Shown here one piece after another: positions 9,264-50,927 of a stretch of 64,000 nt of DNA (the stretch's first letter is position 1; every line of letters begins with the position of its first letter). The position numbers and the translations under genes were made by a program. A model generated the notes under the pieces. That model saw only the letters and a program-made list of their open reading frames with translations, ran no database searches and was not told the DNA's origin. The stretch lies in contig JBMNLH010000001.1 of NCBI GenBank assembly GCA_050952625.1, positions 81,056-145,055 on the forward strand, in the 5' to 3' direction. The DNA comes from Bacillota bacterium. GTDB lineage: Bacteria > Bacillota > Ch66 > Ch109.

Positions 9264-9661
9264 AAAGCATTTACCTCCTTTTCAATAAATAGTAACTTGC
9301 ACTTTTCGCGTAACCGAACTTAGTATTCCCCGGTGTTAGAGATATATTCGGTTTAAACCTTTTTTTAATCCAAAATTTATCCGACGTTCCTATATCAGGT
9401 TTCATCCCCAGTAATTTGCTTAGCGGTTTAATTGCTCTTTTGTTTGAATTTTTGTGCTAAACTCATTACGTTATTTGAAGCTCTTATGGGAGTCTTCATA
9501 AGTTATTTTGCATAAACGATCCTTAGATTTTTAGATAAAAACAGGAAATATAATGATACATGTCGAATTTTTATCTCTAGCGAAATAAATATATTATTTC
9601 AGGAGATTTTAATGATACAAGAGTAAAAGATTACCCGAAAAAGAGGTGATTTTACCCCGTT

Positions 9662-10480
9662 ATGCATTCGCGGACGATCAACCGATCGGTTAAACGATAT
9701 TACCGACAAGGACGAGTCGAGGAGTTTCTGGACTGCCTGGTTCGGGAGTTTCCCGTCACTCTCTACTTCAATGACCACGAACTAGTTACATTGTTGTGTA
9801 CACCGGAGTATTTAGAAGATCTGGCGGTTGGTTTTTTAGTCTCCGAAGGGCTGATGCGGAGCCGAGAAGAATTGGAGTCAGTGGTAGCTGATTATGATAA
9901 AGGTCAGGTTTGGGTCAAGAGTTCGGCTGCCCACTTTATCGCAGAAAAGACATTTTTAAAGCGCTACCTGACTACCGGCTGTGGGAAAGGCACCAGTTTT
10001 TACAACCTAAACGATGTCCAAAGCTGTCGTCCAATAACCTCAGGGTTGCACGTGGACTTGGGACAGGTACTAGATCGAATAAAAGACCTGCAAACCAATT
10101 CCCAATTATTTCAAATCACAGGGGGAGTCCATAGTGCCGCTTTGGCCACGGCCGAAGAAGTTATTTTGTATCGAGAGGACATTGGCCGACATAATGCCGT
10201 TGATAAAATATTGGGATACTGCTTAAGACAAGGACAGGAACTAGCTGAAAGGATAATGCTGACCAGTGGACGTTTATCTTCTGAGATGCTGTTAAAGGTA
10301 GCCAAGGCCGGCATTCCCATGGTTGTTTCGCGTTCCGCCCCCACTGATCTGGCCGTCGAATTAGCCGACCAACTAGGCATTACCTTAGCGGGATTTGCCC
10401 GGGGACCGCGTTTTAACGTGTACAGCCATCCAGAGCGGATAGTTGGGTTGAGGGATGGAGGCATAGGGACGGAGACATAG
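9662..10480 (+). CDS. fdhD: Formate dehydrogenase accessory sulfurtransferase FdhD
   Basis: 272 aa with GGVHSAALA...GRHNAVDKILGYCL...MVVSRSAPTDLAVELADQLGITLAGFARG, the typical FdhD/NarQ pattern. Confidence 0.8.
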   Translation: MHSRTINRSVKRYYRQGRVEEFLDCLVREFPVTLYFNDHELVTLLCTPEYLEDLAVGFLVSEGLMRSREELESVVADYDKGQVWVKSSAAHFIAEKTFLKRYLTTGCGKGTSFYNLNDVQSCRPITSGLHVDLGQVLDRIKDLQTNSQLFQITGGVHSAALATAEEVILYREDIGRHNAVDKILGYCLRQGQELAERIMLTSGRLSSEMLLKVAKAGIPMVVSRSAPTDLAVELADQLGITLAGFARGPRFNVYSHPERIVGLRDGGIGTET

Positions 10481-10612
10481 GATGAGATATTGGGATATGA
10501 GAGGTTAAGTAAAAACTTATGCTTAAGGGTAAGGCGGCTGGGCGTTAGAGATAAAGCAACTGAAGAAATAAATATTATTTATTATTAATAAAGTAACGAG
10601 AAGGAAGAGATC

Positions 10613-11134
10613 ATGGGACAGCGATCAGTAGTGGAATCGGCAGGAGGGAGAGTCCCTCTTTTTTCTGTAGTAGGGGCTTCCAACTCCGGAAAAAGCACAC
10701 TTTTGATTAAACTTGTTCAAGCCCTAAAGAACAGGGGCTATCGGGTAGCGGTTATTAAACATTCGCGAAATTTTGAAGTAGATCAGCCCGGCAAGGACAG
10801 CTGGCGTTATCGGGCTGTTGGAGCTGGACCGGTAATTTTGGCGGGTCCGGAGCAGATGGTCCTCTTTCGGGCCTGGGAAAAAGAATGGGAACCCGAGGAG
10901 ATTGCTCAGAGCTTGACAGATGTAGATCTGGTGATTACAGAAGGCTATAAAAAGGGAAAGCGGCCCAAAATTGAGGTCTTCCGTGAAGATAACTCCCGCG
11001 AGTTGATCTGTCCGCCCGAGGATCTGATCGCCGTGGTCAGCGATGTTAATAAGGATTGGGGAGTGCCGGTTTTTGACCTGGAGCAAATTAAAGAATTGGC
11101 AGATTTTGTAGAAGCCCGATTTCTAAAACGGTAG
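10613..11134 (+). CDS. mobB: Molybdopterin-guanine dinucleotide biosynthesis adapter MobB
   Basis: P-loop FSVVGASNSGKSTLLIKL followed by YRVAVIKHS, at a MobB-like size of 173 aa. Confidence 0.75.
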   Translation: MGQRSVVESAGGRVPLFSVVGASNSGKSTLLIKLVQALKNRGYRVAVIKHSRNFEVDQPGKDSWRYRAVGAGPVILAGPEQMVLFRAWEKEWEPEEIAQSLTDVDLVITEGYKKGKRPKIEVFREDNSRELICPPEDLIAVVSDVNKDWGVPVFDLEQIKELADFVEARFLKR

Positions 11135-11146
11135 AAGGGTGGGTCC

Positions 11147-30012: not shown

Positions 30013-30029
30013 ATAGCGAGGTTTTGGGT

Positions 30030-35307: not shown

Positions 35308-36456
35308 TTGGCGAGACAGACAGATAAGGCACTAACCAGGTTGATTAGTTTGATCAAGATTCTCGAAAAACATCCAAAAGGCTTATCCGCTAATCAATTG
35401 GCCGACTTAACCGGATACCCGGCAGCGGTGATCCTGGATGACCTAAACTGGATCGTGCTGCAATCGGAATTTGCCGCGCACTACACTCTGTACGTTGATG
35501 ATTTCCCGGAAGAAGAATTAGACATAGAGACAGGAAGCGAAGCTTTACCTGAAGCCTTACATATTGAAACAGACAGTATCAAGGCAATCAATAACAGTGT
35601 AAAACATAGTGAGCTAATACAAGCTGAGACAGATAATAGCGACGAAGCAGATTATTCAGTGACTGACCCGGATCTTAAGTGGCTGCTTGTGCAAAGGCAG
35701 ACCTATACCCCCGGTTTAAATCTGTCTCTTGAGGAAGCGGTCCCTCTGTTATGGGCTTTAATGGAACACCCTCCAGGCCAAGAGCTGGCCTTATTCCAAA
35801 AAGAACTCAGGCGGCGAATTTTACCAGATCATATGGCTGAGCCAGCGGAAAACTGGATTCAGTTTATGGGAACCAAAGCGGGGATGGAAACACCCGACTG
35901 CCGTTACCTTGACCAATTGCGGGCGGCAATCTACCGGGAGCAGCTAATAGAGGTTAGATATTATGCTAAACAGTACCGGCAAACCAAACGGGCCCGCCTG
36001 CAACCGCTGGGGCTGGTGCTCTATAACGTAACCGGCACCTGGTACCTGGTCGCCCGAGAATACCCCGGGAAAGATATGACGGCCCGGGAAATAATCTTGC
36101 ATCTGGGGAGGCTTGAATCACTTCGGGTATTAGATCAAACGGCTAGCTACCCGGCTGATTTTTCGCTAACCGATTTTCTTAGAACTAGATGGGGAATGGA
36201 TATGTCAGATCCAGTCAAGGTCAAGGCCAGAATCTATCCGCAGGCCAATGTTCTGGAGAAGATCAACCGGGAAATGATAAAGCGCGGCCTGCCGGCCCCT
36301 GCGGAACAGGCTGACGGAACCTATCTATGGGAAGGCGAAGTGCGGGGAATTAATAATTTTACCCGGTGGATTCTTGGCTTTGGCTCAGCCGTTGAAATCT
36401 TAGCCCCGGCCAAGGTCCGGCGCGAAGTTATTTCGATAATCCGCAATATATGTTAA
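35308..36456 (+). CDS. WYL-domain transcriptional regulator (HTH-WYL-WCX), second of the pair
   Basis: HTH (GLSANQLADLTGYPAAVILDDLNWI), a WYL core (LQPLGLVLYNVTGTWYLVAREYPGKDMTAREIILHLGRLESLRVLD), and a WCX C-terminus (TRWILGFGSAVEILAPAKVRREV). Confidence 0.7.
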   Translation: MARQTDKALTRLISLIKILEKHPKGLSANQLADLTGYPAAVILDDLNWIVLQSEFAAHYTLYVDDFPEEELDIETGSEALPEALHIETDSIKAINNSVKHSELIQAETDNSDEADYSVTDPDLKWLLVQRQTYTPGLNLSLEEAVPLLWALMEHPPGQELALFQKELRRRILPDHMAEPAENWIQFMGTKAGMETPDCRYLDQLRAAIYREQLIEVRYYAKQYRQTKRARLQPLGLVLYNVTGTWYLVAREYPGKDMTAREIILHLGRLESLRVLDQTASYPADFSLTDFLRTRWGMDMSDPVKVKARIYPQANVLEKINREMIKRGLPAPAEQADGTYLWEGEVRGINNFTRWILGFGSAVEILAPAKVRREVISIIRNIC

Positions 36457-36645
36457 GTCAACCCCTACTTAATTGAAGTGGGGGTATTTAGTTTGAAAGG
36501 CAAACATCGCTTTGTCCTCCCCTTCACCGCCTCACGTCTCAAATCTGACATCTCACTCCTTACTCCTCACTTATCACTTCTTACACCTTATACATCACCC
36601 CTTGCCTCGCTCCTCGCACCTCATCCCTCACCCCGGTCGAATTTA

Positions 36646-36710
36646 GGAAACTTTTTTTCGGCTGAGTGAGTTTATAATCAGGTTTAAACTGCAAGCCTGA
36701 TTATATTAGG
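36646..36710 (+). promoter_or_regulatory. Conserved promoter-like element (…tttataat) overlapping a 9-bp perfect inverted repeat, a candidate operator
   Basis: ggaaactttttttcggctgagtgagtttataat has a second copy at 46280-46312. It is followed by ataatcagg-N13-cctgattat. Confidence 0.4.
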
Positions 36711-36922: not shown

Positions 36923-37047
36923 AGCAGCGTAATTTGAAAAACAGAATTAACCATTAGTTAAAATAATTCGTTGATAGTTGGAAGGAAAATGGATGATCGT
37001 GTCGAAATTTCCATATAAATGCAGAACGGAGACGTTCAAATCCTAGT

Positions 37048-39462
37048 ATGTTAACCGTTAACCGTCAGGAGGTGAGAAAAATAGATTGGTTGTCTGACAA
37101 TAATGAAACTAATTTTAAAAACCTATTATACGGGGCCCTTTTTCATGATATCGGCAAGTTTTATCAGCGCACCCGTGATAAACAGGCGGAGAAGGAGATT
37201 TTCCAGGCTTATCAATGGTATGTAGAGAGCCTGGGTCGGGAATACCTCTCCCACGAACAATGGAGTGCCTACTTCATCCGCACTGTTTTAAAAATGGAAG
37301 CAGCCGCAACCCTGGCTTTAAAGCACCACCACCCGGAAACTGACCTGGAATACCTGATCGCAATTGCCGACAAGTTGTCCGCAATGGAACGGGATGAAGA
37401 AGGCCCGGCCAGTAACGGTAAAGCCAATGTGGCAGCGGAACCCCTGTGTTCTGTTTTATCTTCTATCCGGCACATTAGAGATGATAGCGAGCCGGCCATT
37501 AGTTTTAAACGCTTGAAATTCGAACCCTTGGTTGATCCTTACCCGGTTTCCGATAAAAATGCAGCCCTTAGCCCGGGGGACTATCAGGCCTGGTGGGAGT
37601 GTTTCGCAACGGAAACCAAGGAGACTGTGAAGCAGCCGGTCGGTGCTGGCAAACAGTTTCACCGTCTATATCAGTTGCTTTACCAGTACACCCAGACAGT
37701 GCCTTCAGCCGCCTATTATTCCAAACCAACTATCTCCTTGTTTGACCATTCCCGGACCACTGCAGCGATAGCCACGGCCCTTTACCGGCAGGGGCTTAGC
37801 CAGAATGACCTGGAAAGGTTGCACCGTCTTTTGGTGTATGGAGGCAAGAAGCGGGGAGCGGAAGAGCCGGTCCTGCTCTTGGTTGGCGGCGATATTTCGG
37901 GCATTCAGGACTTTGTGTTTGATGTGTCAGCCAAAGGAGCAGCCAAAGGCCTGCGGGGCCGGTCCTATTATCTGGCCACTCTTGGCGAGGCGATTGCTCA
38001 GTTTATCTTGACTCACGAGGGTCTTACCCCCTGTAACATTTTATATTCCGGGGGCGGCCATTTCTATTTGATTCTGCCGGTTCGGGCCATGTCACGCTTA
38101 GCCGATTACCAAAAACAGATCGACCAGATCCTGTTTGCGGCCCATCAAGGGAAGTTGTCGGTCATTCTAACCGGGATTCCCTTGACCCAGACTGATTTTT
38201 ACCCGGAGAATTTCGGCGAAAAGTGGCAGCAGATCGGTCTAGCAGCCCAAAAAGCCAAGCAGCAGAAATTCCTCGAATTGATCCGGCAAAACCCGGAACA
38301 AGTGCTGGGTCCGAGTTATGAAGGCCAGCAGGTTTGCGTCATTTGCGGCAGTTCAATGCCAGTGGGAGAAGAAAAATGCTCTTTCTGCGAAAGCTTTGAA
38401 CAGCTAGGCGATAACCTGGCGCGGGAGCGGACGTATCTTTTGGAGTACTACTTTAAGCCCCGTCCGGTAGACCAGATGTCCACAGTGGAAGATGTCTGGG
38501 CTGGTCTGGGATATCGGCTGGAGTTTTCCAACAAACCAGATGCCCAGGCCATTGTTTCGGTAATCAATCAACCAGCCTTGGCCGATAAAGCAGTTGATCG
38601 TGTGGTTTGGCTGGCGAATACTGCTCCGCATAACCCGGATGGCAGTCTGCTGACTTTTGAGGAGATCGCGGCGCAAAGTACCGGGGATCACATGTGGGGA
38701 GTCCTGCGCGGTGATGTGGATAATCTGGGCAGGGTTTTTCGGGAAGGCCTGGGCCAGGATCGCTCAATTTCCAAGATTGCCGCCCTCAGTCGAGAGATGT
38801 CCTTTTTCTTTAGCTTTATTTTTAATCAGGTCTGTCTGCGGTACCGGCAGTCGGTTTATGTCATTTATGCCGGGGGAGACGATTTCTTTTTGGTAGGTGC
38901 CTGGAGTGATTTGCCAACGATCGCGGCGGAAATCAACCGGGAATTTCACCGATACAGCTCCGGGAACCCTAACCTCACCCTATCTTGTGCGATCAGTATC
39001 GCATCGGGGATGACCTATCCTTTGTTTAAGGTGGCCCATACCGCCGGGGAACAACTGGACGAACAGGCCAAAACCACCCGAATGGTTAAAGGGGTTCTCC
39101 ATCATAAAGATAGTGTATGTTTTCTAGGCCAGCCCTTTACCTGGGGAGAATTGGAGGAAGTCAGACAAGTCAAGAACTTGATCAAAAAAGCAATCCAAAA
39201 TGAAGGGGTGGCTAAATCGCTCATCTTCTTGATTAATACAGCTTACGCTGAGCAGCGGCAATACCAGCAGGGCAGATACCCGATCAATCGAATTTGGCGG
39301 CTGGTCTACGCCCTGACCAGACTGGCTGCGCGACATGGGCAAGCCGCTAACACCCTGAAAGAATTGGAAAGCCGGCTGTTAACCAGCCAGACAATGCTGT
39401 ATGCCAACAGCCTTTACGCGGCCCGCTGGGCCGAAAAAGAATTGAGAACAAGGGGGGACTAA
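37048..39462 (+). CDS. cas10: Type III-A Cas10/Csm1 (HD nuclease plus cyclase/Palm domains)
   Basis: An N-terminal HD motif (LLYGALFHDIGKF) and a GGDD cyclase motif (VIYAGGDDFFLVGAW), at 804 aa, leading the csm2-5 operon. Confidence 0.9.
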   Translation: MLTVNRQEVRKIDWLSDNNETNFKNLLYGALFHDIGKFYQRTRDKQAEKEIFQAYQWYVESLGREYLSHEQWSAYFIRTVLKMEAAATLALKHHHPETDLEYLIAIADKLSAMERDEEGPASNGKANVAAEPLCSVLSSIRHIRDDSEPAISFKRLKFEPLVDPYPVSDKNAALSPGDYQAWWECFATETKETVKQPVGAGKQFHRLYQLLYQYTQTVPSAAYYSKPTISLFDHSRTTAAIATALYRQGLSQNDLERLHRLLVYGGKKRGAEEPVLLLVGGDISGIQDFVFDVSAKGAAKGLRGRSYYLATLGEAIAQFILTHEGLTPCNILYSGGGHFYLILPVRAMSRLADYQKQIDQILFAAHQGKLSVILTGIPLTQTDFYPENFGEKWQQIGLAAQKAKQQKFLELIRQNPEQVLGPSYEGQQVCVICGSSMPVGEEKCSFCESFEQLGDNLARERTYLLEYYFKPRPVDQMSTVEDVWAGLGYRLEFSNKPDAQAIVSVINQPALADKAVDRVVWLANTAPHNPDGSLLTFEEIAAQSTGDHMWGVLRGDVDNLGRVFREGLGQDRSISKIAALSREMSFFFSFIFNQVCLRYRQSVYVIYAGGDDFFLVGAWSDLPTIAAEINREFHRYSSGNPNLTLSCAISIASGMTYPLFKVAHTAGEQLDEQAKTTRMVKGVLHHKDSVCFLGQPFTWGELEEVRQVKNLIKKAIQNEGVAKSLIFLINTAYAEQRQYQQGRYPINRIWRLVYALTRLAARHGQAANTLKELESRLLTSQTMLYANSLYAARWAEKELRTRGD

Positions 39463-39463
39463 G

Positions 39464-39925
39464 GTGGGCATGAATCGACCACCCATTCCGGGGGGACCCG
39501 GGGGCAGACCAAGAAATACAAGCGGAGGTCGAAGTAACCTTGACAATTCCGCGGTCCGGGATGCCCTGCAAAACGTCAGGCAACTGCTGGATAAAGACCA
39601 GGACCCGTACGGAGAGTTATTAATCCAAACAGCCGAGGCAATGGGCCGGCACCTAGCCAATAACCGGATGACCACGGCCCAGATCCGGAAACTCTTCTCC
39701 GAAGTGCGGAAACTTAATTTTAAAGACGACGGGCCTTACAAGACCAATATGATGCGGGCCAAACTGGCCTATACTGCCGGCCGTCACCGCGAAGTTGGTG
39801 ACCTCCAGCAGGTATTAGACAAAGCCTTAATCGAAGTGGGGACCAGCGAAGAAAAATTTAACCGTTTTGAAAACTTTTTTGAAGCCATTGTGGCCTACCA
39901 TAAGAAATACGGCGGTAAAGATTAA
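39464..39925 (+). CDS. csm2: Csm2 small subunit
   Basis: A ~150 aa helical protein between cas10 and csm3, with a Gly/Pro-rich N-terminus followed by a helical core. Confidence 0.75.
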   Translation: MGMNRPPIPGGPGGRPRNTSGGRSNLDNSAVRDALQNVRQLLDKDQDPYGELLIQTAEAMGRHLANNRMTTAQIRKLFSEVRKLNFKDDGPYKTNMMRAKLAYTAGRHREVGDLQQVLDKALIEVGTSEEKFNRFENFFEAIVAYHKKYGGKD

Positions 39926-39970
39926 GAACGAAGAATTAGGGGTTAAGAAGACAGGGAGGAGGCTTAAGCG

Positions 39971-40804
39971 GTGACTGAACTAATAATGGAAGGCAAATTA
40001 GTCATGACTGGCCTGATTAAGGCCTGCACCGGACTGCATATCGGCGGGTCCCCGACTGGTTTAGATATTGGCGGCGTGGATAAGTCTGTCATTAAGGACC
40101 CAGGAGGTAAGCCCTATATCCCCGGCAGTTCGCTCAAGGGGAAAATGCGCAGTCTGCTGGAAAAAAGTGAAGGACTGGTTACTTCGTCCAGCCTGGTAGT
40201 TACTAAAAAAGGCGGGATCCACGACACCATTCGGATGCACATGTGCAATTCGCCAACTTGTGCTGTTTGCAATATTTTCGGCCGGACCAACGGGCGAAAA
40301 AAATTAGCTGACGAATCAGATCTAAATATTGAGAACGGGACCCTGCCGCGTTTGATAGTGCGGGATGCGTATCTGGTTGAGGACAGTATCCCGCGGGAGA
40401 TGAAAGAACACTTGGATTTGGAATGGACCGAGGTCAAGTTTGAAAACTCAATTGACCGTATTACATCTGCCGCTAACCCCCGACAGACTGAACGGGTGCC
40501 GCGGGGAGCAGAGTTTAGTTTTCAAATGGTCTATACGGTTTATACTCCGGCAGACCGAGATGACTTCAGCAAGGTGACCAAGGCCTTACGGCTGTTGGAG
40601 GATGACTACCTGGGCGGGGCCGGCAGCCGGGGTTACGGACAAATCCTTTTTCATAACCTGAAGCTATATTGGAATTCAGTCAATGACTATGAAACCGGGA
40701 ATATTAATCTAGCGACCAAAGAGCCCTGGCTAGCGGCGGATACCCTCAGCCAGTTGATGGAACAAATGGTTGAGGCCGGGGGCGTGGCCGGGCTTAAAGA
40801 ATAG
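39971..40804 (+). CDS. csm3: Csm3 (Cas7 backbone RAMP)
   Basis: GLHIGGS...KPYIPGSSLKGKMRSLLE G-loop motif plus the RAMP C-terminus GSRGYGQI. Confidence 0.9.
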   Translation: MTELIMEGKLVMTGLIKACTGLHIGGSPTGLDIGGVDKSVIKDPGGKPYIPGSSLKGKMRSLLEKSEGLVTSSSLVVTKKGGIHDTIRMHMCNSPTCAVCNIFGRTNGRKKLADESDLNIENGTLPRLIVRDAYLVEDSIPREMKEHLDLEWTEVKFENSIDRITSAANPRQTERVPRGAEFSFQMVYTVYTPADRDDFSKVTKALRLLEDDYLGGAGSRGYGQILFHNLKLYWNSVNDYETGNINLATKEPWLAADTLSQLMEQMVEAGGVAGLKE

Positions 40805-40816
40805 CGGGGCGATAGC

Positions 40817-41809
40817 ATGAAAGCACACATCGTGAAAATGCATTTTACAGCGCCCCTGCACTTAGGCAGCAAGGAAGCAATGCTGGAGAACACCCTGCAG
40901 CATATCCCATCCGATGTTGTTTTTTCCGCGCTGTGCAACGTGTATCGCCACCTCTACGGCAAACAAGCTTTAGAGTCGCTGCTGGCGGAACAAGCACAGT
41001 CGGCCGGCTTCCTATTGTCATCAGCCTTTCCTTATTACCGGGATGCCTATTTTTTGCCCCGGCCTTTAAACTTTGACTTAACCCGCTATGGCTTTGAACC
41101 GAAAAAGGCCAAACGGGTGAAATATCTGGAATATAACCTGATGCACCGGGTGTTGGCGGGTAAGTTTCAAGCCGCGGATTTGGAGAATTATGTCGCTGAG
41201 GCGGTGCAGGGCCTGCTTTTGCCCCGGGAGTATCAGGGTCTGAAAATCTGCCGCGAGGTTGAAATACCGCGGGTCGCCCTGGACAGCCTGACTGCTGCGT
41301 CAAATATCTATTACTTTAACCAGGTGACCTTTACCCGGGAGGCCGGTCTTTACTGTCTGGTCCGGTGTGCGCCGGAATTATGGGGCCGGCTCAGGACCTG
41401 TTTTCGTGTCTTGGGCGATGAAGGAATCGGCGGGGACCGGACTTCCGGCAAGGGAGGATTTACCGTCGAATTTCCAGGCGAACTGGCTTTTCCGCAACTG
41501 GGTCAGCCGGCCAGCCATGTCTTATTGTCCCTGTATTATCCCAGTTCTGATGAGGCGGGAAGCCTGGAGGCTGAGTATTCGTTAATCAAACGTTCTGGTT
41601 ATGTCTACTCTTCAGAGGAAACCGGCCTGAGAAGGAAAAGCGTCACCATGCTGGCCGAAGGGGCAGTAGTCTACGCTGATTCTCCTCCAGTTGGGAAGCT
41701 CGTGGACCTGACACCGCCCGGGTTTGACAAGCACAAAGTCTGGCGCAATGGCCTGGCCTTCACGGTGGCGTCAGCCCTGGGGAAAGGAGGAGGGGAAGAT
41801 GCCGGGTAA
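40817..41809 (+). CDS. csm4: Csm4 (Cas5-group RAMP)
   Basis: 330 aa between csm3 and csm5, with a C-terminal Gly-rich region (GDEGIGGDRTSGKGGF). Confidence 0.8.
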   Translation: MKAHIVKMHFTAPLHLGSKEAMLENTLQHIPSDVVFSALCNVYRHLYGKQALESLLAEQAQSAGFLLSSAFPYYRDAYFLPRPLNFDLTRYGFEPKKAKRVKYLEYNLMHRVLAGKFQAADLENYVAEAVQGLLLPREYQGLKICREVEIPRVALDSLTAASNIYYFNQVTFTREAGLYCLVRCAPELWGRLRTCFRVLGDEGIGGDRTSGKGGFTVEFPGELAFPQLGQPASHVLLSLYYPSSDEAGSLEAEYSLIKRSGYVYSSEETGLRRKSVTMLAEGAVVYADSPPVGKLVDLTPPGFDKHKVWRNGLAFTVASALGKGGGEDAG

Positions 41810-42950
41810 ACTCAAGTATCGCCTGGAGGTCTTGACCCCGGTGCATATTGGCAGCGGGCAAAAACTGCTGCCGGCGGATTATATTCTTGATCCCGAGACG
41901 CAGGAGGTTATTCGGGTCGACCTAAATGCCCTGTTTAGTGACCGCTCTTTTCCGGTCGGACGTTTTATCGCGGCGATTAAAGAGCCTGGCTTTAGTCTGC
42001 AGCGGAAATTTTATCAGTCAGGGCGCATGTATCCCCTGTACCGGCTGGCAGCAGCCGATACGCTAAACGAGCTTAACCAGCACATTGGCCGCCCGGCCGG
42101 GGCCATTCTCGAACACATAAAGGAGGCCGGCCAGCCCTATCTCCCGGGGAGTTCGCTGAAAGGAGCCTTGCGTAGTCTGGTCGTTCGCTGCTTGATTGCG
42201 CAAAACCCTGATTCTTACGAAGAAAGGCTCAGACAAAACATGCAAGGAGACAGGAGAAGCCGAAAGGAGTTTTTCTCCACTTCCGCTGAAGAACGCGTAG
42301 TCGGCAACCCCAATTTTAGTCTATTTAAGTCCCTGCAGGTTAGCGACAGCTCAACGTTAAACCCACAGCAGCTTCAATTGGGCTGTACGCGGGTCCTTTC
42401 CTTAACCCGACGTGGGTTCCGCTGGAAGGACCTGGGTCAGAACACGAACGTGGATCGTCCAGAGATGGCAACGCCGATTTTTTTTGAAGCCATTCCGGCT
42501 GGGACCACCCTAACCGGCACCTTAAAGGTAGATGAGACCTTGCTCAAAGGAGAAATGGCGCAATTGCTCAGGTACCCGCCGGCCAGCAGAACCGCCCTGC
42601 TGGAACTAACGCGGATCTGCCGGGAAGGCAGCCGGGAACTGTTGCGCAATGAAGAGGAGTTTTTCACGAAAATTTCCTTTGCCCCGGGTGTTCAGGCGGT
42701 CAAAGGTATACTGTCGATTGAGCAGGACTGCAACGCTAATCAGATGATTATCCCCTTGGCCTGGGGGACTGGTTATCTGGCCAAAGCGATGGGCTGGAAG
42801 ATTGATCCCGATTTGTTTCGGGAGGTGCGAGACCGATTCAGACTGGGCCGGCCGGGGTTTGAATTTCCAAAATCTCGAAAGATTATTTTCACGCAGGGTA
42901 AACCGTCTGGTTTAATGGGCTGGGTTAAGATCACCCTGGGAGAGGAATAA
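41799..42950 (+). CDS. csm5: Csm5 (Cas7-group RAMP)
   Basis: MPGKLKYRLEVLTPVHIGSG...PYLPGSSLKGALRSLV. The ATG at 41799 is preceded by GGAAAGGAGGAGG; the ORF-track start at 41724 lies inside csm4. Confidence 0.85.
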   Translation: MPGKLKYRLEVLTPVHIGSGQKLLPADYILDPETQEVIRVDLNALFSDRSFPVGRFIAAIKEPGFSLQRKFYQSGRMYPLYRLAAADTLNELNQHIGRPAGAILEHIKEAGQPYLPGSSLKGALRSLVVRCLIAQNPDSYEERLRQNMQGDRRSRKEFFSTSAEERVVGNPNFSLFKSLQVSDSSTLNPQQLQLGCTRVLSLTRRGFRWKDLGQNTNVDRPEMATPIFFEAIPAGTTLTGTLKVDETLLKGEMAQLLRYPPASRTALLELTRICREGSRELLRNEEEFFTKISFAPGVQAVKGILSIEQDCNANQMIIPLAWGTGYLAKAMGWKIDPDLFREVRDRFRLGRPGFEFPKSRKIIFTQGKPSGLMGWVKITLGEE

Positions 42951-42953
42951 CTG

Positions 42954-43882
42954 ATGCTCAAGGTAATTAAAGTTAATATCGAACTCAAACCCGTCGAACC
43001 TATTGAACTGCCAGTTTATAAAGGTTCCACCTTTCGGGGGGATTGGGCCAGGTACTTAAAGAGATGGTCTGTATCCGGCGGGACCGGCAGTGCCGTCGGT
43101 GTTCCATAAGTAATAAATGCAGCTATACCTTCGTCTTTGAAACCGCAACTTATTATGCCGGGCAGCCTCGGGATTCCGGGGGTGTGCCGCAGCCGTTTGT
43201 CTTGGAACCACCTCTGGAGGAAGAAACCAGATACGAAGTTGGCCAAACAATCAATTTCAGTTTAGTTTTGATGGGGCGGGGGGTAGATTATCTGCCCTAC
43301 TTCCTGTCCGCCTTTGATTTTATGGGGGAGCGGGGAATCGGACGCCGGCGGGGTCGGTTTGAGTTGTTCCGCGTGACTGACAGCTATTCGGGAGAGGTAG
43401 TCTACGACCGGGAAAGCGGTGAGGTTAACTCGCTGTTGACCCCCCGAAACCTTTCAGACCTGCTTCTGAAAAGCGAGGCGTGCCAAAGCTGTTGCCTGAC
43501 TCTGCTCACCCCGCTTCGTTTAAAACAAGGGGGCAGCCTGACCGAACAATTCAACTTTGAATTACTCATTCGAGCTATTCTAAGGAGAATAACCTATCTC
43601 AACCAGTATTTCGGTGATCAAGAGATAGAACTGGATTATAAACAGCTTATCGATCAGGCCAAAGAGATCAAAACCAGGGCCAGAAATATAGCCTGGCGGG
43701 ACTGGGAAAGGTATTCAAGCCGGCAGGATACCCGGATGAAACTGGGCGGAATAGTTGGCGACATAGAGTTCGCCGGAGAAATTACCCCTTTTTGGCCTTT
43801 TCTGTTAATGGGGCAGGAAATCCACATTGGCAAGAATACTACCTTTGGCCTGGGAAAATATTTAGTGGAACGATCAGGCTGA
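42954..43882 (+). CDS. cas6: Cas6 (crRNA endoribonuclease) of the III-A module, with a frameshift in a G6 run at 43035-43040
   Basis: Frame 0 from the ATG at 42954 gives MLKVIKVNIELKPVEPIELPVYKGSTFRG, then hits a stop. The track ORF (43043..43882) continues ...GQVLKEMVCIRRDRQCRRC... and carries the Cas6 G-rich loop GEITPFWPFLLMGQEIHIGKNTTFGLGKY. Inserting one G yields GSTFRGGLGQVL. Confidence 0.8.
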
Positions 43883-44343
43883 GAGATTGAGAATGTTGAG
43901 TAGATGTTGGAAGGATAAGTAATATTTATGTCGAATTCTAATATTATCTATTTTATTTTACCAGTTTCATATTCGATAGGTTTTGCCTATCGTAATTGAT
44001 AGATAAGTAAGTGAGCCTTTTGGCCTGATTTTATAACGTTGCCCTGCACGAACGAATAGTAATCAAAATTGCAAATTCGACTCCATATAATATAAGCAAT
44101 TTATATTTATTGAAGTAATGCACTTATTATTATCGCTAACCTGTTTAAGGCTAAAAATCTCTGGGAGGTTAGCGATAATGAGTAATTCAAAGAAATATGC
44201 TGAAATAAAGAGCAAGGAGGCAATAATTTTATTTGGGATGAACTGGAAAAGAGGTGATTTTCAAGTCTTTGTAGCAGGTTTTTTTGCGGTTAGCGGAATG
44301 GCACCTCGCAGCCCAGTATTATCAAGGCCTCCGGACAGCCGCT
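43883..44343 (+). promoter_or_regulatory. CRISPR array 1 leader (AT-rich), with a conserved 12-bp stem hairpin at 44131-44177 and 58 bp next to the first repeat shared with the array 2 leader
   Basis: tatcgctaacct...aggttagcgata, and gcggttagcggaatggcacctcgcagcccagtattatcaaggcctccggacagccgct, both have homologs at 60825-60867 and 60978-61035. Confidence 0.6.
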
Positions 44344-46179
44344 GTGAGAATGATTGACCCGCTCAGAGGGGATTGCGACGATGTACTTCTCGAAATTATC
44401 ATCGGCTCGCTTGTGCCAGTGGTGAGAATGATTGACCCGCTCAGAGGGGATTGCGACGGCATTAACCTCCTCCTCCTCCTCTTCTAATTCAGTTAATCTG
44501 TGAGAATGATTGACCCGCTCAGAGGGGATTGCGACCTGTCCCCGTAAATACGAGGACTTCTCTCAGATACCTGAGGTGAGAATGATTGACCCGCTCAGAG
44601 GGGATTGCGACAATTCCTCCTTGTTTTTTTTCGGTTGGTTTAGAGATTTCGTGAGAATGATTGACCCGCTCAGAGGGGATTGCGACTGTCACCTTTGTCA
44701 GCGTCCCCGCCATCATTGCCGGAGCCGCGTGAGAATGATTGACCCGCTCAGAGGGGATTGCGACACCAGATGCGGCCAGCATGGATCCACCGCTTGCTAA
44801 AACGTGAGAATGATTGACCCGCTCAGAGGGGATTGCGACTTTTCCTGTAATTCTGGCAATGATAAGATGTATCCAACTGTGAGAATCATTGACCCGATCA
44901 GAGGGGATTGCGACAAATAGCAATTAGAATTATTACCATGAAATTTCGGATCTGGGTGAGAATCATTGACCCGATCAGAGGGGATTGCGACTTACTAGAA
45001 TAAACACTTCTCCGCGCGATTTTTTTCCTGGTGAGAATCATTGACCCGATCAGAGGGGATTGCGACACTGGAGAGGAAGAAATAATGCTCATAATGGCAT
45101 TGACTTGTGAGAATCATTGACCCGATCAGAGGGGATTGCGACCCACTGCCGACCGGCAGCAAGCAGATTTTCATCCCCGTGAGAATCATTGACCCGATCA
45201 GAGGGGATTGCGACAAGGATTAAAGAATATAGCTCCTACAACTTTGTTGTGTGTGAGAATCATTGACCCGATCAGAGGGGATTGCGACGATATTTTTACG
45301 ATTAGTCCTATCCCCTGCAGCATCGGTGAGAATCATTGACCCGATCAGAGGGGATTGCGACGACTGCCCGCCGACCGCACTCGATGGCCGAAACCATTTT
45401 GTGAGAATCATTGACCCGATCAGAGGGGATTGCGACTTCTCCTTCTTTTTTGGTTTCGTTTCGTTTTCGACGGCTGGGTGAGAATCATTGACCCGATCAG
45501 AGGGGATTGCGACCAAAAGCAAGCTTACGACGGGATATGTTTTAGCTAGTGTGAGAATCATTGACCCGATCAGAGGGGATTGCGACAACTGAAGGTTTAC
45601 GTTTTTCTTGTTATCCCAGCTAATTGTGAGAATCATTGACCCGATCAGAGGGGATTGCGACCTATTGTTGCAGCACCACCACAACGCTCACAAATAAAAA
45701 GTGAGAATCATTGACCCGATCAGAGGGGATTGCGACCTAATGCCATAACTTCTCAACTCATCAATTGATTTCGGTGAGAATCATTGACCCGATCAGAGGG
45801 GATTGCGACATATTTTTCCTCCCATGGCTGGAACGGGTCAGAACGGTGTGAGAATCATTGACCCGATCAGAGGGGATTGCGACACACAAACTCTGGAACC
45901 CTCTCCCCGTCCTGCCTCTTTGCGTGAGAATCATTGACCCGATCAGAGGGGATTGCGACCTTGAAACTCATCGCACATCGCTCACTTTCTCTTATTTGTG
46001 AGAATCATTGACCCGATCAGAGGGGATTGCGACTTTTAGAGCAGGTCGCTTAGCAGGATTTTTCTCCTTTTTTGTGAGAATCATTGACCCGATCAGAGGG
46101 GATTGCGACACTCACTGTTCCCTTTTTATGCCCCATGATGATATCCCAAGGGGAGAATCATTGACCAGATTCGCCGAAT
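44344..46179 (+). CRISPR. CRISPR array 1: 25 repeats of 36 bp plus one degenerate terminal repeat; spacers 36-42 bp
   Basis: Repeats 1-7 read gtgagaatgattgacccgctcagaggggattgcgac; repeats 8-25 read gtgagaatcattgacccgatcagaggggattgcgac; a degenerate copy lies at 46150. First repeat starts include 44344, 44422, 44500, 44576 and 44651. The leader is at the cas6 side, so the array is transcribed on the + strand. Confidence 0.95.
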
Positions 46180-46279
46180 TATTTACTTTACCCAAAACAA
46201 CTAGGTGGGTTAGATGGCAAGCTAATTCAGGTTAATGGCAGCCTCAGTTATTGGGGCTTTTTTTATTGCCCCCTATCTG

Positions 46280-46312
46280 GAAACTTTTTTTCGGCTAGTT
46301 GAATTTATAATT
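46280..46312 (+). promoter_or_regulatory. Second copy of the conserved promoter-like element upstream of the HNH-motif gene
   Basis: ggaaactttttttcggctagttgaatttataat matches 36646-36679 at about 30 of 34 positions and ends in TATAAT. Confidence 0.4.
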
Positions 46313-46368
46313 TATTAGGGTGATCGGTTAACTTGTCATTGCAACTTCTATCAAGGAGGTTAAAAGAA

Positions 46369-47229
46369 ATGGGTTTTCTAAAGGATTTAGGCAGTCTCAC
46401 CGGCAGCATTGCAGGGGTGGTTTTGTCTACTCCAGTGACTTTGGCTGGTGGTTTTTTTGATAGTGATACCTTAAAGGAGGCGGCTCGCGGGATACACTAT
46501 GTTACCGCCAGTACTGGTTCCTTAATCGGTCAAACCGTCAGTGGCGGTCTGGATGTGGTGGAAGGAGTTTTAACTAGGAATGACAGGATAAGTCAGCAGG
46601 GTCTTGATGAGGTTGGTGATTCTTTTAAAACTGTTATCAATGGGGTAATTGGTGGTACCGCTAGTCTCTTGGATAATAGTGGTAAAGTAATTACTGGGGT
46701 ATTTGAGGGTGATACGGCCACCGCAATGCAAGGAGCTAAAAATCTTGCTAAATTTGGCATAATTACGGCCATCGGAATTGGGCTGGCTGATGCGATTGGG
46801 ATTGTTGATGTAAATGGGAATGAGACGGTAGCCCACGCTCAAGTACCTAGTAGTTTTAGTTATGATCAAGATGATGCTGTTTTGGATTATTCAGATATTG
46901 GTGAACCGCATGGGCTAGTACCGGACGTTCCGGTTGATGACATTCCTGGAGTTGATAATGGTATGGCTCATCCATCCGCTACGGAGGTATTAATTGATCT
47001 GGGTTGCCAGGATGGAACGGAGCATGTCGTGGATCCGCCCCGGGATCCGGGGATGGTCCAGGCATTTTTAACGGAGCATGGATATACTGAGACTCCTGAT
47101 GGTTACGAGGTCCATCACATTATTCCTCTGTCCGAAGGTGGAGCCGACCATCCGGCTAACATGGTATTAGTTTTGGAAGAAGAACATGATCAGATTACGG
47201 CGGCCCACCAGAGGTTTTATCAATGGTAA
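46369..47229 (+). CDS. Hypothetical protein with a Gly-zipper-rich N-terminal region and a C-terminal HNH-type nuclease motif
   Basis: The ATG at 46369 follows an AAGGAGG RBS. The C-terminus EVHHIIPLSEGGADHPANMVLVLEEEHDQITAAH fits the HNH HH-N-H pattern. The N-terminus has GxxxG-like runs (ITAIGIGLADAIGI). Confidence 0.5.
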   Translation: MGFLKDLGSLTGSIAGVVLSTPVTLAGGFFDSDTLKEAARGIHYVTASTGSLIGQTVSGGLDVVEGVLTRNDRISQQGLDEVGDSFKTVINGVIGGTASLLDNSGKVITGVFEGDTATAMQGAKNLAKFGIITAIGIGLADAIGIVDVNGNETVAHAQVPSSFSYDQDDAVLDYSDIGEPHGLVPDVPVDDIPGVDNGMAHPSATEVLIDLGCQDGTEHVVDPPRDPGMVQAFLTEHGYTETPDGYEVHHIIPLSEGGADHPANMVLVLEEEHDQITAAHQRFYQW

Positions 47230-47438
47230 TTAAGGTTTAACTTGAGATGGTTTCTAGTTATATTTAAAGCATACTAGTTAAGTCGGTTTAAAAAGTTAAC
47301 CATTGATATTCTTTAAAAATTAGAAGGGAAATGGATGAATATGTCGAATTTCCAGTATACAGTATTGATATGGTCGAATAACTAGTAGGTATTGCGAAAC
47401 AACTTAATTATTGGGATTTAGCGTAGAACGGAGGCCTA

Positions 47439-49151
47439 ATGATAATGGAGAAAAAACCGTGGAAGCTAATTACCTTTATCGGGATGGGTTATTATCAGCC
47501 GACGAATTATAAGATTAAAGGAGTAGAATATCCTGACACCAAATATTTTCCCTTAGCTGCGGCTAAATGGTTGATTGAGCAAAGGGGAGATCAAGGAAAA
47601 ATTGTAGTACTGGTCACTAAAGAAGTTATTGAAGATACAAAAAACCAGAATTTACAGGGATTTAAGGAAGCCTTATTACTTGACCCACAATTTAAACATC
47701 TAAATGTGCAGCAAGAAATATTTCCTTGGAAAGAAGAAAGCGAGCTCTGGGAAATATTTAAGATAATCGTTAATTCGGTAGAGAATGGCGAAACCGTATA
47801 TTTTGATATTACTCATTCCTTTAGATTTATCCCGTCCATCGTTTTGTTGGCTTTGATTTATTTAAAAGAGGTTAAAAGGATAGACCTTCAGTCGGTGTTC
47901 TACGGAAACTTTGAGGCAACGAAATCAGGCTTTGACTATGCACCCGTATTTGATATTCTCCCTTTTGTCGATCTCGCGGAATGGCTGTTTGGGGCGCGAG
48001 TATTTAAAGAATTTGGGTTAGGCAGTATTTTAGGTGACAAAATTAAGACGGTGCAGGCTGAAATACGGAGAAAAAGCAAAGAAGGGCCGGAGAAGTTAAT
48101 TAAGCTGGGGACCCGCTTGAATAATCTTTCAAGTGCTTTAGCTGTGGGTAATGCCATAGGTGTGGGTGAAAACGCCCTGAAATTGACTAATTTTATAAAT
48201 CAAAATAAAGATAAAATAGAAACGGAAGTAAGGGAGTATGTCCCGCCATTGGTGCCGTTAATAGAGGGTATTGTGGATGAATATGCTCAATTTGGGCTTG
48301 AGGATATTCAGTTAAATATGAAGGAATTAGAGAGAGAAGAAAGTTTAATTCGCTGGTATCTAGAAAAAAAAGATATCGGAAAAGCCCTGCAACTGTTTAG
48401 GGAATTTATAGTAAATACTGTTTTATATATTAATGCTGGGTCGACTCGTGAGTGGCTAAAACTGGATAATAGATTGCCCGTAGAACGGCAATTACATAAT
48501 TTAAAGGTCGCTAATACAGAGGTTGGTCGCCTCTGGGATGAAATTGCATTCGAAAGAAATTCAATTGCCCATTGTGGTTTTAATAATCAAGACAAATTTA
48601 ATCCGAATAAAGAGTATCGAAATTTACAGTTGGTTACCAGGCCTGACCATAATCTTGAGGAATGGATTTCTAGAATTGCTTCAGAGGTACAAGCTTTAGC
48701 CTTCGATGAAGGATCGGTCCTGCTAACACCATTGGGGCTGTCGAAAGGGTTATTATTTACCTTATGGCAGAGATATCCTGATATTGAGCGGACCATAATT
48801 CTCACATCGGCAGAGACGGTCAACAGTATCGAAGAAGTGAAAAAGATAACCGGATACTCAGGGGAGATCAAGATCTGCCTAGTTCAAGATCCATTTACTG
48901 CTTTTGACCAGATTGAAAATAAGTGGAAGGAAATAAAAGATTTTCTTAAAAGTAATATTATTGTTAATATCACTGGCGGTACCACAGCACTTCAATATTT
49001 GGTGGAAAAAATACAACAAAGGCTTATTAACCAGGATGTGAGAATAACTACGGTTGCGGCTATTGATCGAAGGCCCGTGCAGGAACAAAAAGAAAACCCA
49101 TGGGTAGCCGGACAGATAATTAAATTAAAGGAAGACCATCAGGAAGATTAG
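47439..49151 (+). CDS. csx1: Csx1-family CARF-HEPN ribonuclease with an additional C-terminal Rossmann/CARF-like domain
   Basis: N-terminal CARF with the DxTH motif (VYFDITHSFRFIPS), a HEPN Rx4H motif (FERNSIAHCGF), and then ~190 more aa with VLLTPLGLSKGLLFT...TIILTSAE...VNITGGTTALQYL, which looks like a second CARF-type fold. Confidence 0.75.
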   Translation: MIMEKKPWKLITFIGMGYYQPTNYKIKGVEYPDTKYFPLAAAKWLIEQRGDQGKIVVLVTKEVIEDTKNQNLQGFKEALLLDPQFKHLNVQQEIFPWKEESELWEIFKIIVNSVENGETVYFDITHSFRFIPSIVLLALIYLKEVKRIDLQSVFYGNFEATKSGFDYAPVFDILPFVDLAEWLFGARVFKEFGLGSILGDKIKTVQAEIRRKSKEGPEKLIKLGTRLNNLSSALAVGNAIGVGENALKLTNFINQNKDKIETEVREYVPPLVPLIEGIVDEYAQFGLEDIQLNMKELEREESLIRWYLEKKDIGKALQLFREFIVNTVLYINAGSTREWLKLDNRLPVERQLHNLKVANTEVGRLWDEIAFERNSIAHCGFNNQDKFNPNKEYRNLQLVTRPDHNLEEWISRIASEVQALAFDEGSVLLTPLGLSKGLLFTLWQRYPDIERTIILTSAETVNSIEEVKKITGYSGEIKICLVQDPFTAFDQIENKWKEIKDFLKSNIIVNITGGTTALQYLVEKIQQRLINQDVRITTVAAIDRRPVQEQKENPWVAGQIIKLKEDHQED

Positions 49152-49205
49152 GTGACCTGAAATTCTAAAAGTGATCAAAGCAGGCAAAATTTTTTTGTCT
49201 AGATT

Positions 49206-50492
49206 ATGAGGTGGAATGTGGCTAGAGTTCTCATTTCAGGCATAGGTACTGGCCAGCTTAATGGTCAGGATGATTATGGGCTTGAACACCGAAGAAAATA
49301 CCGAACAGCAACTTATCTTATTGATCAGAAAAAATATGAAACAGAGTTTATAGCCAGTGCATTAATAGAACATTACCAAATTGAAAAGGTGTTTCTTGTT
49401 GGTACCGTAAAATCAATGTGGGAAAATGTATATGAGTATTTTGCTGGTGCTAACCTGGATGAAGAATATTATTTCCATTTGGTTGAAGCAATTGAAAAAT
49501 CAAATTATTTAGATCAATGCTTTGACATGGACTATCTTGGCAACGTGAACGAAGCAATGAACTGTTTTCTTAAGTCGAGTGACTCACGTTGTTTTTTAAT
49601 TAAGTACGGCTTGAATGAAGAGGAAATTATCTATAATTTCGGGATATTTCAGGATATCGCGGAGTTGTTGGAAAGTGGAGACGAGGTGTTTCTGGACATA
49701 ACTCATTCTTTTCGGTCATTGGCTCTATTTCAATACACAATGGTCAATTACATAGACAATTTGTCACACAAAAACATTGAGGTTAAGGGCGTGTTTTACG
49801 GCATGCTCGAAACTGCTCGGGAGATGCAGGGCATTACACCGGTGGTTAATCTTAAAACAGTGTATGAATTAAGCAATTGGGTAAAAGCCATTCATGAGTT
49901 AAAGAGTTACGGAAATGGTTATATAGTATCGGATTTATTAAGAGATTATGATAAACGACTAGCTAACAAGATCAAAATGTTTTCGGACCTGGTTAATTTA
50001 AACTACCTGGCTGGGGTAAAAAACCAAGTGGACAATCTGTCGAGATTAAACTTTGAACACATAAATGGGCCGGGCAGTATGGTGGCAGAGTATCTAAATC
50101 GTTATGTTAACCGGTTCGCGTCAATCAGAAATGAGTGGGAGTTCCAGTTTGAAATGGCAAAGTGGTATTTTGAAAATAAACGGTATGCTACGGGTTATAT
50201 TGCTTTGATAGAATCGATATTAACTCGAATTTGCGAATTGTTAGCTTTAGATCCTAAAATTAAAAACAATAGAGATGAAGCGAAAAATATTCTCTATAAT
50301 AACCGATCAGGTGCTAATTTGAGAGAGGTCAGGTATAAGTTCGATGCGATTAATAGAATCCGTAAGAATGTGGCGCATGTCCTTGATGATCGGGACGAAA
50401 GGAATTATTTGACGGATGTGCGGCAGTCAGCTTATTACATCCGGAGTTTAGAAGGATTATTAAAGCGTCTGTCGGCTGATGATTTAAGGTGA
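49206..50492 (+). CDS. csx1: Csx1-family CARF-HEPN ribonuclease (paralog 2)
   Basis: CARF with VFLDITHSFRSLALF and a HEPN Rx4H motif (INRIRKNVAHVLD), at 428 aa. The start may instead be the GTG at 49221. Confidence 0.75.
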   Translation: MRWNVARVLISGIGTGQLNGQDDYGLEHRRKYRTATYLIDQKKYETEFIASALIEHYQIEKVFLVGTVKSMWENVYEYFAGANLDEEYYFHLVEAIEKSNYLDQCFDMDYLGNVNEAMNCFLKSSDSRCFLIKYGLNEEEIIYNFGIFQDIAELLESGDEVFLDITHSFRSLALFQYTMVNYIDNLSHKNIEVKGVFYGMLETAREMQGITPVVNLKTVYELSNWVKAIHELKSYGNGYIVSDLLRDYDKRLANKIKMFSDLVNLNYLAGVKNQVDNLSRLNFEHINGPGSMVAEYLNRYVNRFASIRNEWEFQFEMAKWYFENKRYATGYIALIESILTRICELLALDPKIKNNRDEAKNILYNNRSGANLREVRYKFDAINRIRKNVAHVLDDRDERNYLTDVRQSAYYIRSLEGLLKRLSADDLR

Positions 50493-50927
50493 GCCTTTAT
50501 GATCTGATTCAAGCTAGATCCAAAACAGGTGGCTTTTCTGACCTTACCCGGTAAGGTTGTATTGCATGGCAACCTAACGGGGTTATTTTTTGAAAAAGGA
50601 GTGGCTTAAATTTTTTCATTCATTGAAGCTTTCCTTTTGCCCGTTTGTAGACTTTTCTGCTAGTTGAACTATATCTACTTGTTTGCTCTTTATAAATGTT
50701 AATAAATCTTGACGAATGATGTCGAATTGTTTTTTTGAAATAGAATCTGCTATAAATTAAATCCTAGTAATATAGTCTACTTTAAATTAGCGAGATATTG
50801 ATTATGTTAATAGACTATTAAAAGAGGAAAATCAATAAATAATGTCGAAATACCATAATGTAGTATGCAATTCTGCGGTATTACGTAATTTTTTTTTCTC
50901 GGTAAAGGAGTACAAAGGGGTGTTGGC

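Follow-up and report, generated by a model that had tools for sequence, protein, structure and literature searches.

Probable sigma-H-type promoters precede the type III CRISPR-Cas units, one CRISPR array and several other genes in a 64-kilobase Bacillota locus

The timing and mode of CRISPR-Cas induction have been worked out for only a few systems, and little is known of them for the type III systems of Firmicutes. The question is raised by the stretch analyzed here, 64,000 nucleotides (nt) of contig JBMNLH010000001.1 from a Bacillota bacterium (assembly GCA_050952625.1; positions 81,056 to 145,055), which we refer to as the window. It carries two type III modules and two CRISPR arrays, and a short word, ATGTCGAA, recurs in front of the cas operons and a few other genes. 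What kind of element is this word, and which genes does it connect? An initial annotation had listed seven copies and suggested a promoter or transcription-factor site shared by both type III modules. Judged from its sequence, the recurrent word supplies the −10 element of a bipartite promoter composed of AGGA, 17–18 nt and GAAT, and the seven sites of this architecture in the window are probably promoters of the sigma-H-family (SigH/Spo0H) type. The promoter part of the earlier suggestion is thereby retained, as the element is bipartite, directional and of fixed spacing and heads the csm and cmr operons as well as array 1 and the csx1 pair. Some refinements apply. The motif is not CRISPR-specific but matches the promoter class of a global alternative sigma, and it is found in front of fdhD, of genes for a MoxR-type ATPase and its VWA partner, and of an uncharacterized small open reading frame (ORF) as well; array 2 lacks it.

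A position check placed all seven listed copies in intergenic DNA, upstream of plus-strand genes or of array 1, and the genes named downstream of them were borne out: FdhD, a MoxR/MadB-like AAA ATPase with its VWA partner, Cas10/Csm1, two TM1812/Csx1-family CARF proteins, and Cmr1 with Cmr2. Of the word ATGTCGAA itself the window contains six copies, all of them intergenic and on the plus strand (9560, 28906, 43928, 47341, 50719 and 50842); shuffled sequences contained 1.56 copies on average, and 1 of 100 shuffles reached 6. The copy in front of cas10, at 37000, reads GTGTCGAA instead of ATGTCGAA. The heptamer TGTCGAA is present 10 times against 6.05 expected, a total that includes the cas10 copy (37000), two coding copies (48739 and 53958) and one minus-strand copy (5392). 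Taken alone, the bare word is weakly, or marginally, above chance, and the earlier estimate that the 7-mer stays near chance level was upheld. The extended context had been described as exceeding chance, and here the evidence turned out to be stronger than claimed. An alignment of the seven listed copies on their common GTCGAA shows AGG[AG]WAW exactly 11–12 nt upstream in six cases. The bipartite pattern AGGRWAW-N11-12-GTCGAA was observed 6 times, compared to an average of 0.017 over 300 shuffles that preserve dinucleotide composition, a ratio that is inflated because the pattern was written post hoc from the sites; the looser pattern AGG-N15-16-GTCGAA occurs 7 times against 0.79 expected. The looser search uncovered an additional site at 8051–8077 that had been overlooked, making seven bipartite sites, and the listed copy at 50720 lacks the upstream box.

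A position matrix was trained on the seven bipartite sites, and motif scans covered the 64-kilobase (kb) window and the related loci that were fetched. The seven sites score 28–32 bits, compared to 15.7 bits for the runner-up on either strand (128 kb), indicating that they form a discrete class. All of them are confined to the non-coding, non-array 19% of the window and share the strand of the gene that follows. Six end 58–93 nt 5′ of a start codon, those of orf8136, fdhD, moxR, cas10, csx1 and cmr1, and the seventh ends 407 nt 5′ of the first repeat of array 1. AGGN and GAA are separated by 17 nt at five sites and by 18 nt at the other two. Six sites have AGGA as their −35 box and the csx1 site has AGGG, with GAAGGR in five of the seven; the −10 box reads G-TC-GAA throughout, the last base being T in four sites, A in two and G in one, and six of the seven −10 boxes contain the perfect TGTCGAA heptamer. 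Inverted repeats around the sites vary from site to site, and no common palindrome was found. Chance and simple sequence duplication were considered as the origin of the set and rejected; outside both boxes there is no extended similarity except between the cas10 and csx1 sites.

Sigma-H is the transition-state/stationary-phase and early-sporulation sigma factor of Firmicutes. Its −35 consensus RNAGGAWWW is reportedly also given in Britton 2002. The predicted promoters of the window have a −35 box with AGGA (RNAGGAWWW) and the 17–18-nt gap of this class, and the −10 box with GAAT (RNNGAAT) is complete in four sites and one base off in three. Transcription start sites mapped in Sporomusa sphaeroides define the same arrangement, AGGA at −35, GAAT at −10 and 17–18 nt between them, which resembles the SigH promoters of Bacillus subtilis and Clostridioides difficile (PMC12456013). 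No plus-strand sigma-70-like match (TTGACA-16-18-TATAAT) overlaps any of the seven sites, and none accompanies the motif 5′ of orf8136 (7840–9700 scanned), fdhD, moxR, cas10 or cmr1 (50493–50927, plus strand); the csx1 region and the leader of array 1 contain one weak match each. Terminator-like hairpins lie just 5′ of the moxR site (28796–28814) and ahead of the cas10 site (36461–36485). Considering these hairpins together with the missing sigma-70-like matches, the motif is the only promoter-like element in position at these genes.

As a positive control, 80 metagenomic loci were collected whose Spo0A proteins are closely related to that of B. subtilis (63 distinct Bacillaceae loci), and the 350 nt 5′ of spo0A were scanned with the window matrix. 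In about 60 of the 63 distinct Bacillaceae loci the top match was RRAGGAWWT-N11-TTGTCGAAW, located 65–120 nt from the spo0A start codon. A score of at least 12 bits was reached in 75% of the spo0A upstream regions, in contrast to 1.6% on the opposite strand and 7% of random segments of the same loci. The match corresponds to spo0A Ps, a documented sigma-H-dependent promoter (10.1101/2025.01.21.634141), so that a matrix learned from the window alone recognizes a textbook SigH promoter with the same TGTCGAA at −10.

Related type III loci provide a second line of evidence. Cas10 homologues of 49–63% identity were placed on contigs, and each whole locus was scanned on both strands. Of eight related type III loci, five have their locus-wide best match directly 5′ of the operon head. 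It reads GAAGGGAAA-N11-GTAGAAT about 35 nt 5′ of cas10 in L003/L004 (Cas10 63% identical), GGAGGAAAT-N11-GTAGAAT 5′ of the csm operon head in L005 (56%), GAAGGATTT-N11-GGCGAAT 5′ of the csm operon head in L089 (49%), and GCAGGAAAG-N12-GAAGAAA at the head of the operon running into cas10 in L006 (51%). In L100, a locus found through a Csx1-like protein, the best match is GGAGGATTT-N12-GGCGAAT, about 35 nt 5′ of a card1-csx1-cmr operon. Loci that keep the site preserve its −35 box, its GAAT core and its spacing and differ in the two bases before GAAT (TC, TA or GC), which is the pattern predicted by the SigH consensus RNNGAAT. The cas10 operon of L006 (6675–9928) contains three further genes ahead of cas10, two of which encode BrxC/BrxD-like ATPases, and the sigma-H-like site is found at the head of this extended operon.

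Several observations weigh against the sigma-H assignment. Loci L087 and L090 have no acceptable site 5′ of cas10, and L088 has a weak candidate only; no clear motif was seen at the operon heads of the type III-B orthologues from Desulfosporosinus (L094/L095), a metagenomic relative (L096) and Geobacillus (L098). An imperfect AGGA-17-GAAT (CAAGAAT) about 150 nt 5′ of the Desulfosporosinus head was not counted as support, nor was TTGCTT-17-TAAAAT, seen by eye in Geobacillus (L098/L099) instead of the motif; L096 has no such site. A genome scan with Cas10 yielded two loci only, the source fragment itself, from a Syntrophomonadaceae metagenome-assembled genome (L001, 100% identity), and a distant one from Thermodesulfovibrionales (L002), which carries a sigma-70-like TATAAT upstream and no motif. 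Within the window, array 2 falls outside the scheme: the motif is absent, and the leader contains a sigma-A-like TTGAAG-17-TATAAT. The 64 kb contain no sigH or spo0A gene, and some Syntrophomonadaceae do not sporulate; sigma-H is present in non-sporulating Firmicutes too. The canonical GAAT is found in four of the seven sites only, GAAA replacing it in two and GAAG in one, and one −35 box is AGGG. The positive control is partly confounded, as spo0A Ps itself has a Spo0A (0A) box within its −10 region. Finally, the T and C of G-TC-GAA are invariant in seven non-orthologous sites and are not demanded by the SigH consensus, so that another cause is needed, either a lineage-specific preference of the sigma factor or Spo0A.

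The latter cause leads to an alternative in which the functional unit is a Spo0A box, phosphorylated Spo0A (Spo0A~P) is the main regulator and the AGGA block is incidental or part of something else. The core of the Spo0A box is TGTCGAA, contacted at G2, C4 and G5; clostridial Spo0A binds this sequence too, and in C. difficile the functional boxes are found 67–78 nt 5′ of start codons (PMC3485338). In the window this exact core, with G2, C4 and G5 perfect, is found in six of the seven promoter sites and in the 50720 copy, even though SigH needs R-N-N-GAAT only. Moreover, the 50720 copy, which has no AGGA, is paired with TGACGAA at 3 base pairs (bp), an arrangement known from phage Nf, in which a footprinted Spo0A site consists of two 0A boxes separated by 3 bp (PMC2731898). 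However, a Spo0A box leaves the AGGA block at a fixed 17–18 nt in seven of seven promoter-like sites unexplained. The orthologous cas10 promoters read TGTAGAAT, having lost C4 but retained the SigH architecture, and a C4-to-A change lowers Spo0A affinity about 10-fold in vitro (PMC3485338). More generally, the box is not kept at orthologous promoters, which have TGTAGAA (C4 lost) in L003, L005 and L088 and TGGCGAA or AGGCGAA in L089 and L100. Outside the seven sites TGTCGAA is not enriched, with 4 copies against about 6 expected for the whole window. A tandem pair is present at cmr1 only, and no extra perfect boxes cluster at the other six promoters, which have a single box each apart from three one-mismatch neighbours, at csx1 (+29), leader 1 (+42) and cas10 (−108). 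In B. subtilis, box 0A4 overlaps the −10 region of Ps and its effect was reported to be negligible (10.1101/2025.01.21.634141). We thus consider it improbable that Spo0A is the main regulator of these sites.

The strict GTCGAA of all seven sites, being narrower than the general SigH consensus, could also reflect a different alternative sigma with SigH-like specificity, such as a SigH paralogue, a ComX-like competence sigma or a defence-dedicated sigma resembling those of the extracytoplasmic function (ECF) type, comparable to DdvS of Myxococcus. There is a documented case of a type III-B system under a dedicated ECF sigma (PMC6061681), and locus L003 encodes a small Sigma70_r4 protein about 1.5 kb 5′ of cas10; yet that protein adjoins a serine recombinase and has region 4 only. 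No sigma or anti-sigma gene or domain was found among the window ORFs scanned, and the ORF at 8136–8492 and those in 58591–60634 have no Pfam or NCBIfam match, indicating that no CalpS/T/L-like or sigma module is located there. The −35 box is AGGA rather than the AAC of ECF promoters (whose −10 is CGT), the motif matches Bacillaceae spo0A Ps base for base, and the set of targets takes in housekeeping genes such as fdhD. An alternative sigma other than sigma-H therefore has a small chance of being responsible.

A further alternative is an operator for a regulator encoded in the locus itself that coordinates the CRISPR modules, either a CARF protein or one of two helix-turn-helix (HTH) proteins. 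The latter, with WCX or WYL-WCX domains (33808–35280 and 35308–36456), are directly 5′ of the type III-A operon and followed by the hairpin at 36461–36485, and are candidate ligand-sensing regulators of the locus. Beyond this position immediately 5′ of cas10, the similarity of the cas10 and csx1 copies, which share TGGATGA and GGAAAT/ATTTCC arms, would be compatible with an operator laid over the promoter. The common motif, by contrast, is asymmetric and directional, and the inverted arms occur at two of the seven sites only, exactly the two at which they had been noted before. The motif also precedes fdhD, moxR and orf8136, 8–29 kb away, as well as spo0A in Bacillaceae and type III operons without an annotated WYL gene in the stretch fetched. 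A locus-encoded operator is accordingly a very remote prospect. In the cas10 (36985–37012) and csx1 (47326–47354) promoters, TGGATGA lies in the spacer, and TTAACCATT is shared further 5′ in addition to the arms; these extra common bases could represent the operator of a second regulator or a promoter duplication.

Returning to sigma-H promoters, the probable reading of the sites, we can outline how they would operate. RNA polymerase with a sigma-H-family sigma would read the block R-N-AGGA-W-W-W as the −35 element and (A/G)T-GTCGAA-T, with its GAAT core, as the −10 element; transcription would start a few bases 3′ of GAAT, giving leaders of about 50–85 nt. A search of the predicted leaders against Rfam detected no known RNA element, the sole match being the RNase P RNA of class A at 7481–7839 on the minus strand (318 bits), which lies between the gene of a CoA-binding protein and the orf8136 promoter region. 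Four of the seven promoters would split the CRISPR region into units, namely the csm operon, array 1, the csx1 pair and the cmr operon, and all four units would be switched on together once sigma-H is active. The same sigma would drive fdhD, the MoxR/VWA pair and the small ORF. We infer that the host has sigma-H and that the predicted sites fire; by analogy with other Firmicutes, the time of firing would be the entry into stationary phase, starvation or the onset of sporulation.

All seven sites are on the plus strand. The predicted promoter at 36981–37007 (−35 GAAGGAAAA, 11-nt spacer, −10 GTCGAAA; 30.4 bits) heads the type III-A operon cas10-csm2-csm3-csm4-csm5-cas6 (about 37072–43882). The longest ORF of this Cas10, of 804 amino acids (aa), has no exact counterpart on record; a database protein that is 99% identical, P0001, has 796 aa, which implies that cas10 starts at the GTG at about 37072. 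An exact 18-nt sequence, GGAAACTTTTTTTCGGCT, occurs both 5′ of cas10 (36646–36663) and at 46279–46296, 5′ of an HNH-domain gene (46333–47229) between array 1 and csx1. The next putative promoter, at 43910–43936 (−35 GAAGGATAA, 11-nt spacer, −10 GTCGAAT; 31.0 bits), begins 28 nt past the cas6 stop codon, in line with the earlier description of a copy in the leader of array 1 just after cas6; array 1 itself was found to span 44344–46109, starting at 44344 rather than at about 44879 as given before, and its first repeat is the one 407 nt downstream. Since the cas6 stop codon is only 28 nt from this promoter, array 1 is also reachable by read-through from the csm operon. The site at 47323–47349 (−35 GAAGGGAAA, 11-nt spacer, −10 GTCGAAT; 31.3 bits) is a predicted promoter located 89 nt 5′ of two CARF/Csx1-family genes (47439–49151 and 49206–50492), which together form the csx1 unit (47439–50492). 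The fourth, at 50823–50850 (−35 AGAGGAAAA, 12-nt spacer, −10 GTCGAAA; 29.3 bits), is 77 nt 5′ of cmr1 and would head the type III-B operon cmr1-cmr6-cas6 (50928–58409).

Of the three predicted promoters outside the CRISPR region, the one at 9541–9568 (−35 ACAGGAAAT, 12-nt spacer, −10 GTCGAAT; 29.2 bits) ends 93 nt 5′ of fdhD (9662–10480), with mobB next in line. In Sporomusa, formate dehydrogenase genes belong to the expanded SigH regulon, in which the defence COG category is overrepresented (PMC12456013); the presence of fdhD in the set fits such a regulon by analogy. A second one, at 28888–28914, has the same −35 sequence as the array 1 site (GAAGGATAA), an 11-nt spacer and a −10 of GTCGAAG (31.7 bits), and is located 87 nt 5′ of the genes for the MoxR/MadB-like AAA ATPase (29002–30012) and the VWA protein (30024–31148). 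The third, at 8051–8077 (−35 GAAGGAATG, 11-nt spacer, −10 GTCGAAT; 28.2 bits), is the weakest of the seven; it has CGTCGAA rather than TGTCGAA and lies 58 nt 5′ of a 118-aa ORF (8136–8492).

Given the 0A boxes, what part could Spo0A play at sigma-H promoters? The overlap of box 0A4 with the −10 region of B. subtilis Ps gives a precedent for the SigH/0A composite in the window, and Spo0A~P may modulate the predicted promoters via the 0A boxes in their −10 regions. From the sequence we regard such co-regulation, secondary to sigma-H, as a tentative possibility at best. At 50710–50726, on the plus strand, two Spo0A-box-like heptamers stand head to tail 3 bp apart (TGACGAA-TGA-TGTCGAA), the second being the 50720 copy; one such pair was observed, and 7 of 500 shuffles gave at least one. 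Because no AGGA box is present 17–18 nt 5′ of the 50720 copy, this element does not qualify as a sigma-H promoter but is a candidate site for a Spo0A dimer, some 120 bp 5′ of the cmr promoter. The 11-mer AAATCCTAGTA occurs at 37038–37048 and 50759–50769, each time 31–32 nt 3′ of a TGTCGAA, once in the cas10 promoter and once at the distal cmr1 copy; allowing for mismatches, the window contains 16 copies of AAATCCTAGTA against 18.3 expected, so there is no enrichment. From the common AAATCCTAGTA, the distal cmr1 copy may be a decayed duplicate of a cas10-like promoter. A more far-reaching scenario, which we consider rather doubtful, is that type III immunity of this clostridial clade is wired into the sigma-H/Spo0A circuit: sigma-H would turn on both effector complexes, the cOA-sensing Csx1 proteins and the production of CRISPR RNA as cells leave exponential growth, and Spo0A~P would then tune or shut down expression through the −10 boxes and the tandem 0A boxes at commitment to sporulation. 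If true, this would be the host counterpart of phages such as phi29, whose 0A boxes sense the same signal.

The arrays and their surroundings show further features. Array 1 contains 24 repeats of two variants, the 7 leader-proximal ones with ..AATGATTGACCCGCTCAG.. and the other 17 with ..AATCATTGACCCGATCAG..; the divergent variant is thus at the leader end, where new spacers normally enter. Array 2 (61036 to about 62500) has a third variant, ..GATTAGAG.., and ends in degenerate repeats. Leaders 1 and 2 are alike over their proximal ~210 bp. A perfect 14-nt inverted repeat in leader 1 (ATTATCGCTAACCT / AGGTTAGCGATAAT; 44129–44179) is conserved in sequence in leader 2 (60826–60874), and a small ORF with a strong ribosome-binding site extends from 44179 into the first repeat of array 1. 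Between the cmr-linked cas6 and array 2, three ORFs of 111, 229 and 323 aa (58591–60634), the last two of which look membrane-associated or coiled-coil, may be uncharacterized type III accessory genes. A sequence of ~80 bp is present twice in opposite orientation, 5′ of the moxR promoter (28682–28759) and 5′ of the first WYL-type gene (33571–33648), with 89–95% identity in two blocks, and could be a small repeat element. Two genes are each split into two ORFs, a DUF763 gene on the minus strand (33194–33529 and 32428–33171) and a gene for an MFS transporter on the plus strand (5508–5900 and 5903–6919); these may be frameshifts or assembly errors.

Should these promoters operate as predicted, both type III modules would form one regulon with their signalling effectors and one CRISPR array, tied to a transition-state/sporulation sigma. 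The link to sigma-H is conserved in several diverged type III loci; if it is true, type III immunity of the abortive-infection kind would be timed to slow growth or starvation, where phage infection meets dormancy. The sequence rule is simple, AGGA-17/18-GAAT 5′ of cas10 or cmr heads, and can be applied to thousands of genomes. It would also broaden the recently proposed concept of expanded SigH regulons in anaerobic Firmicutes; a SigH motif has been reported in Moorella, Carboxydothermus and Thermacetogenium as well (PMC12456013).

How do these sites compare with known systems? The spo0A promoter Ps of B. subtilis is built like the window sites, with an AGGA-type −35, an 11-nt spacer and a −10, TGTCGAAT, in which a perfect 0A box lies inside the SigH −10. 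In contrast to Ps, the window composite stands before CRISPR-Cas, fdhD and MoxR genes rather than a sporulation regulator, upstream activating 0A boxes equivalent to 0A1-3 are not seen in the window except at cmr1, and the host is a clostridial syntroph, not Bacillus. The expanded SigH regulon of Sporomusa sphaeroides KIAC shares with the window AGGA, 17–18 nt and GAAT as well as non-sporulation targets (PMC12456013), but there the start sites were mapped experimentally, whereas the window promoters are known from sequence. No CRISPR-Cas target was found in the text of that study or in the parts of its supplements that were available to us. Full-text searches of one literature collection, which are not proof, returned no report that SigH or Spo0A controls any CRISPR-Cas system, and no paper on sigH or spo0A in Syntrophomonas. 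Type I-B CRISPR-Cas of C. difficile resembles the window in that an alternative, stress-related Firmicute sigma drives both cas operons and arrays (PMC5961336); it differs in the sigma, SigB, in the promoter sequence, GTTT-N12-GGGWWW, and in CRISPR type, and is supported by a mutant and by quantitative reverse-transcription PCR. The type III-B system of Myxococcus xanthus controlled by DdvS is similarly organized by several copies of one alternative-sigma promoter, and its array, too, is expressed from a cas-linked promoter and not from a sigma-A promoter in its leader (PMC6061681). In the window, however, array 1 has its own promoter copy; and DdvS is a dedicated ECF sigma with a small regulon, encoded with its anti-sigma, whereas in the window a global sigma is implicated and no sigma gene is nearby. 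Compared to these systems, the targets, namely type III CRISPR-Cas, are apparently unreported while the promoter class is already known, and since that class is textbook knowledge, the advance lies in the targets and not in the mechanism.

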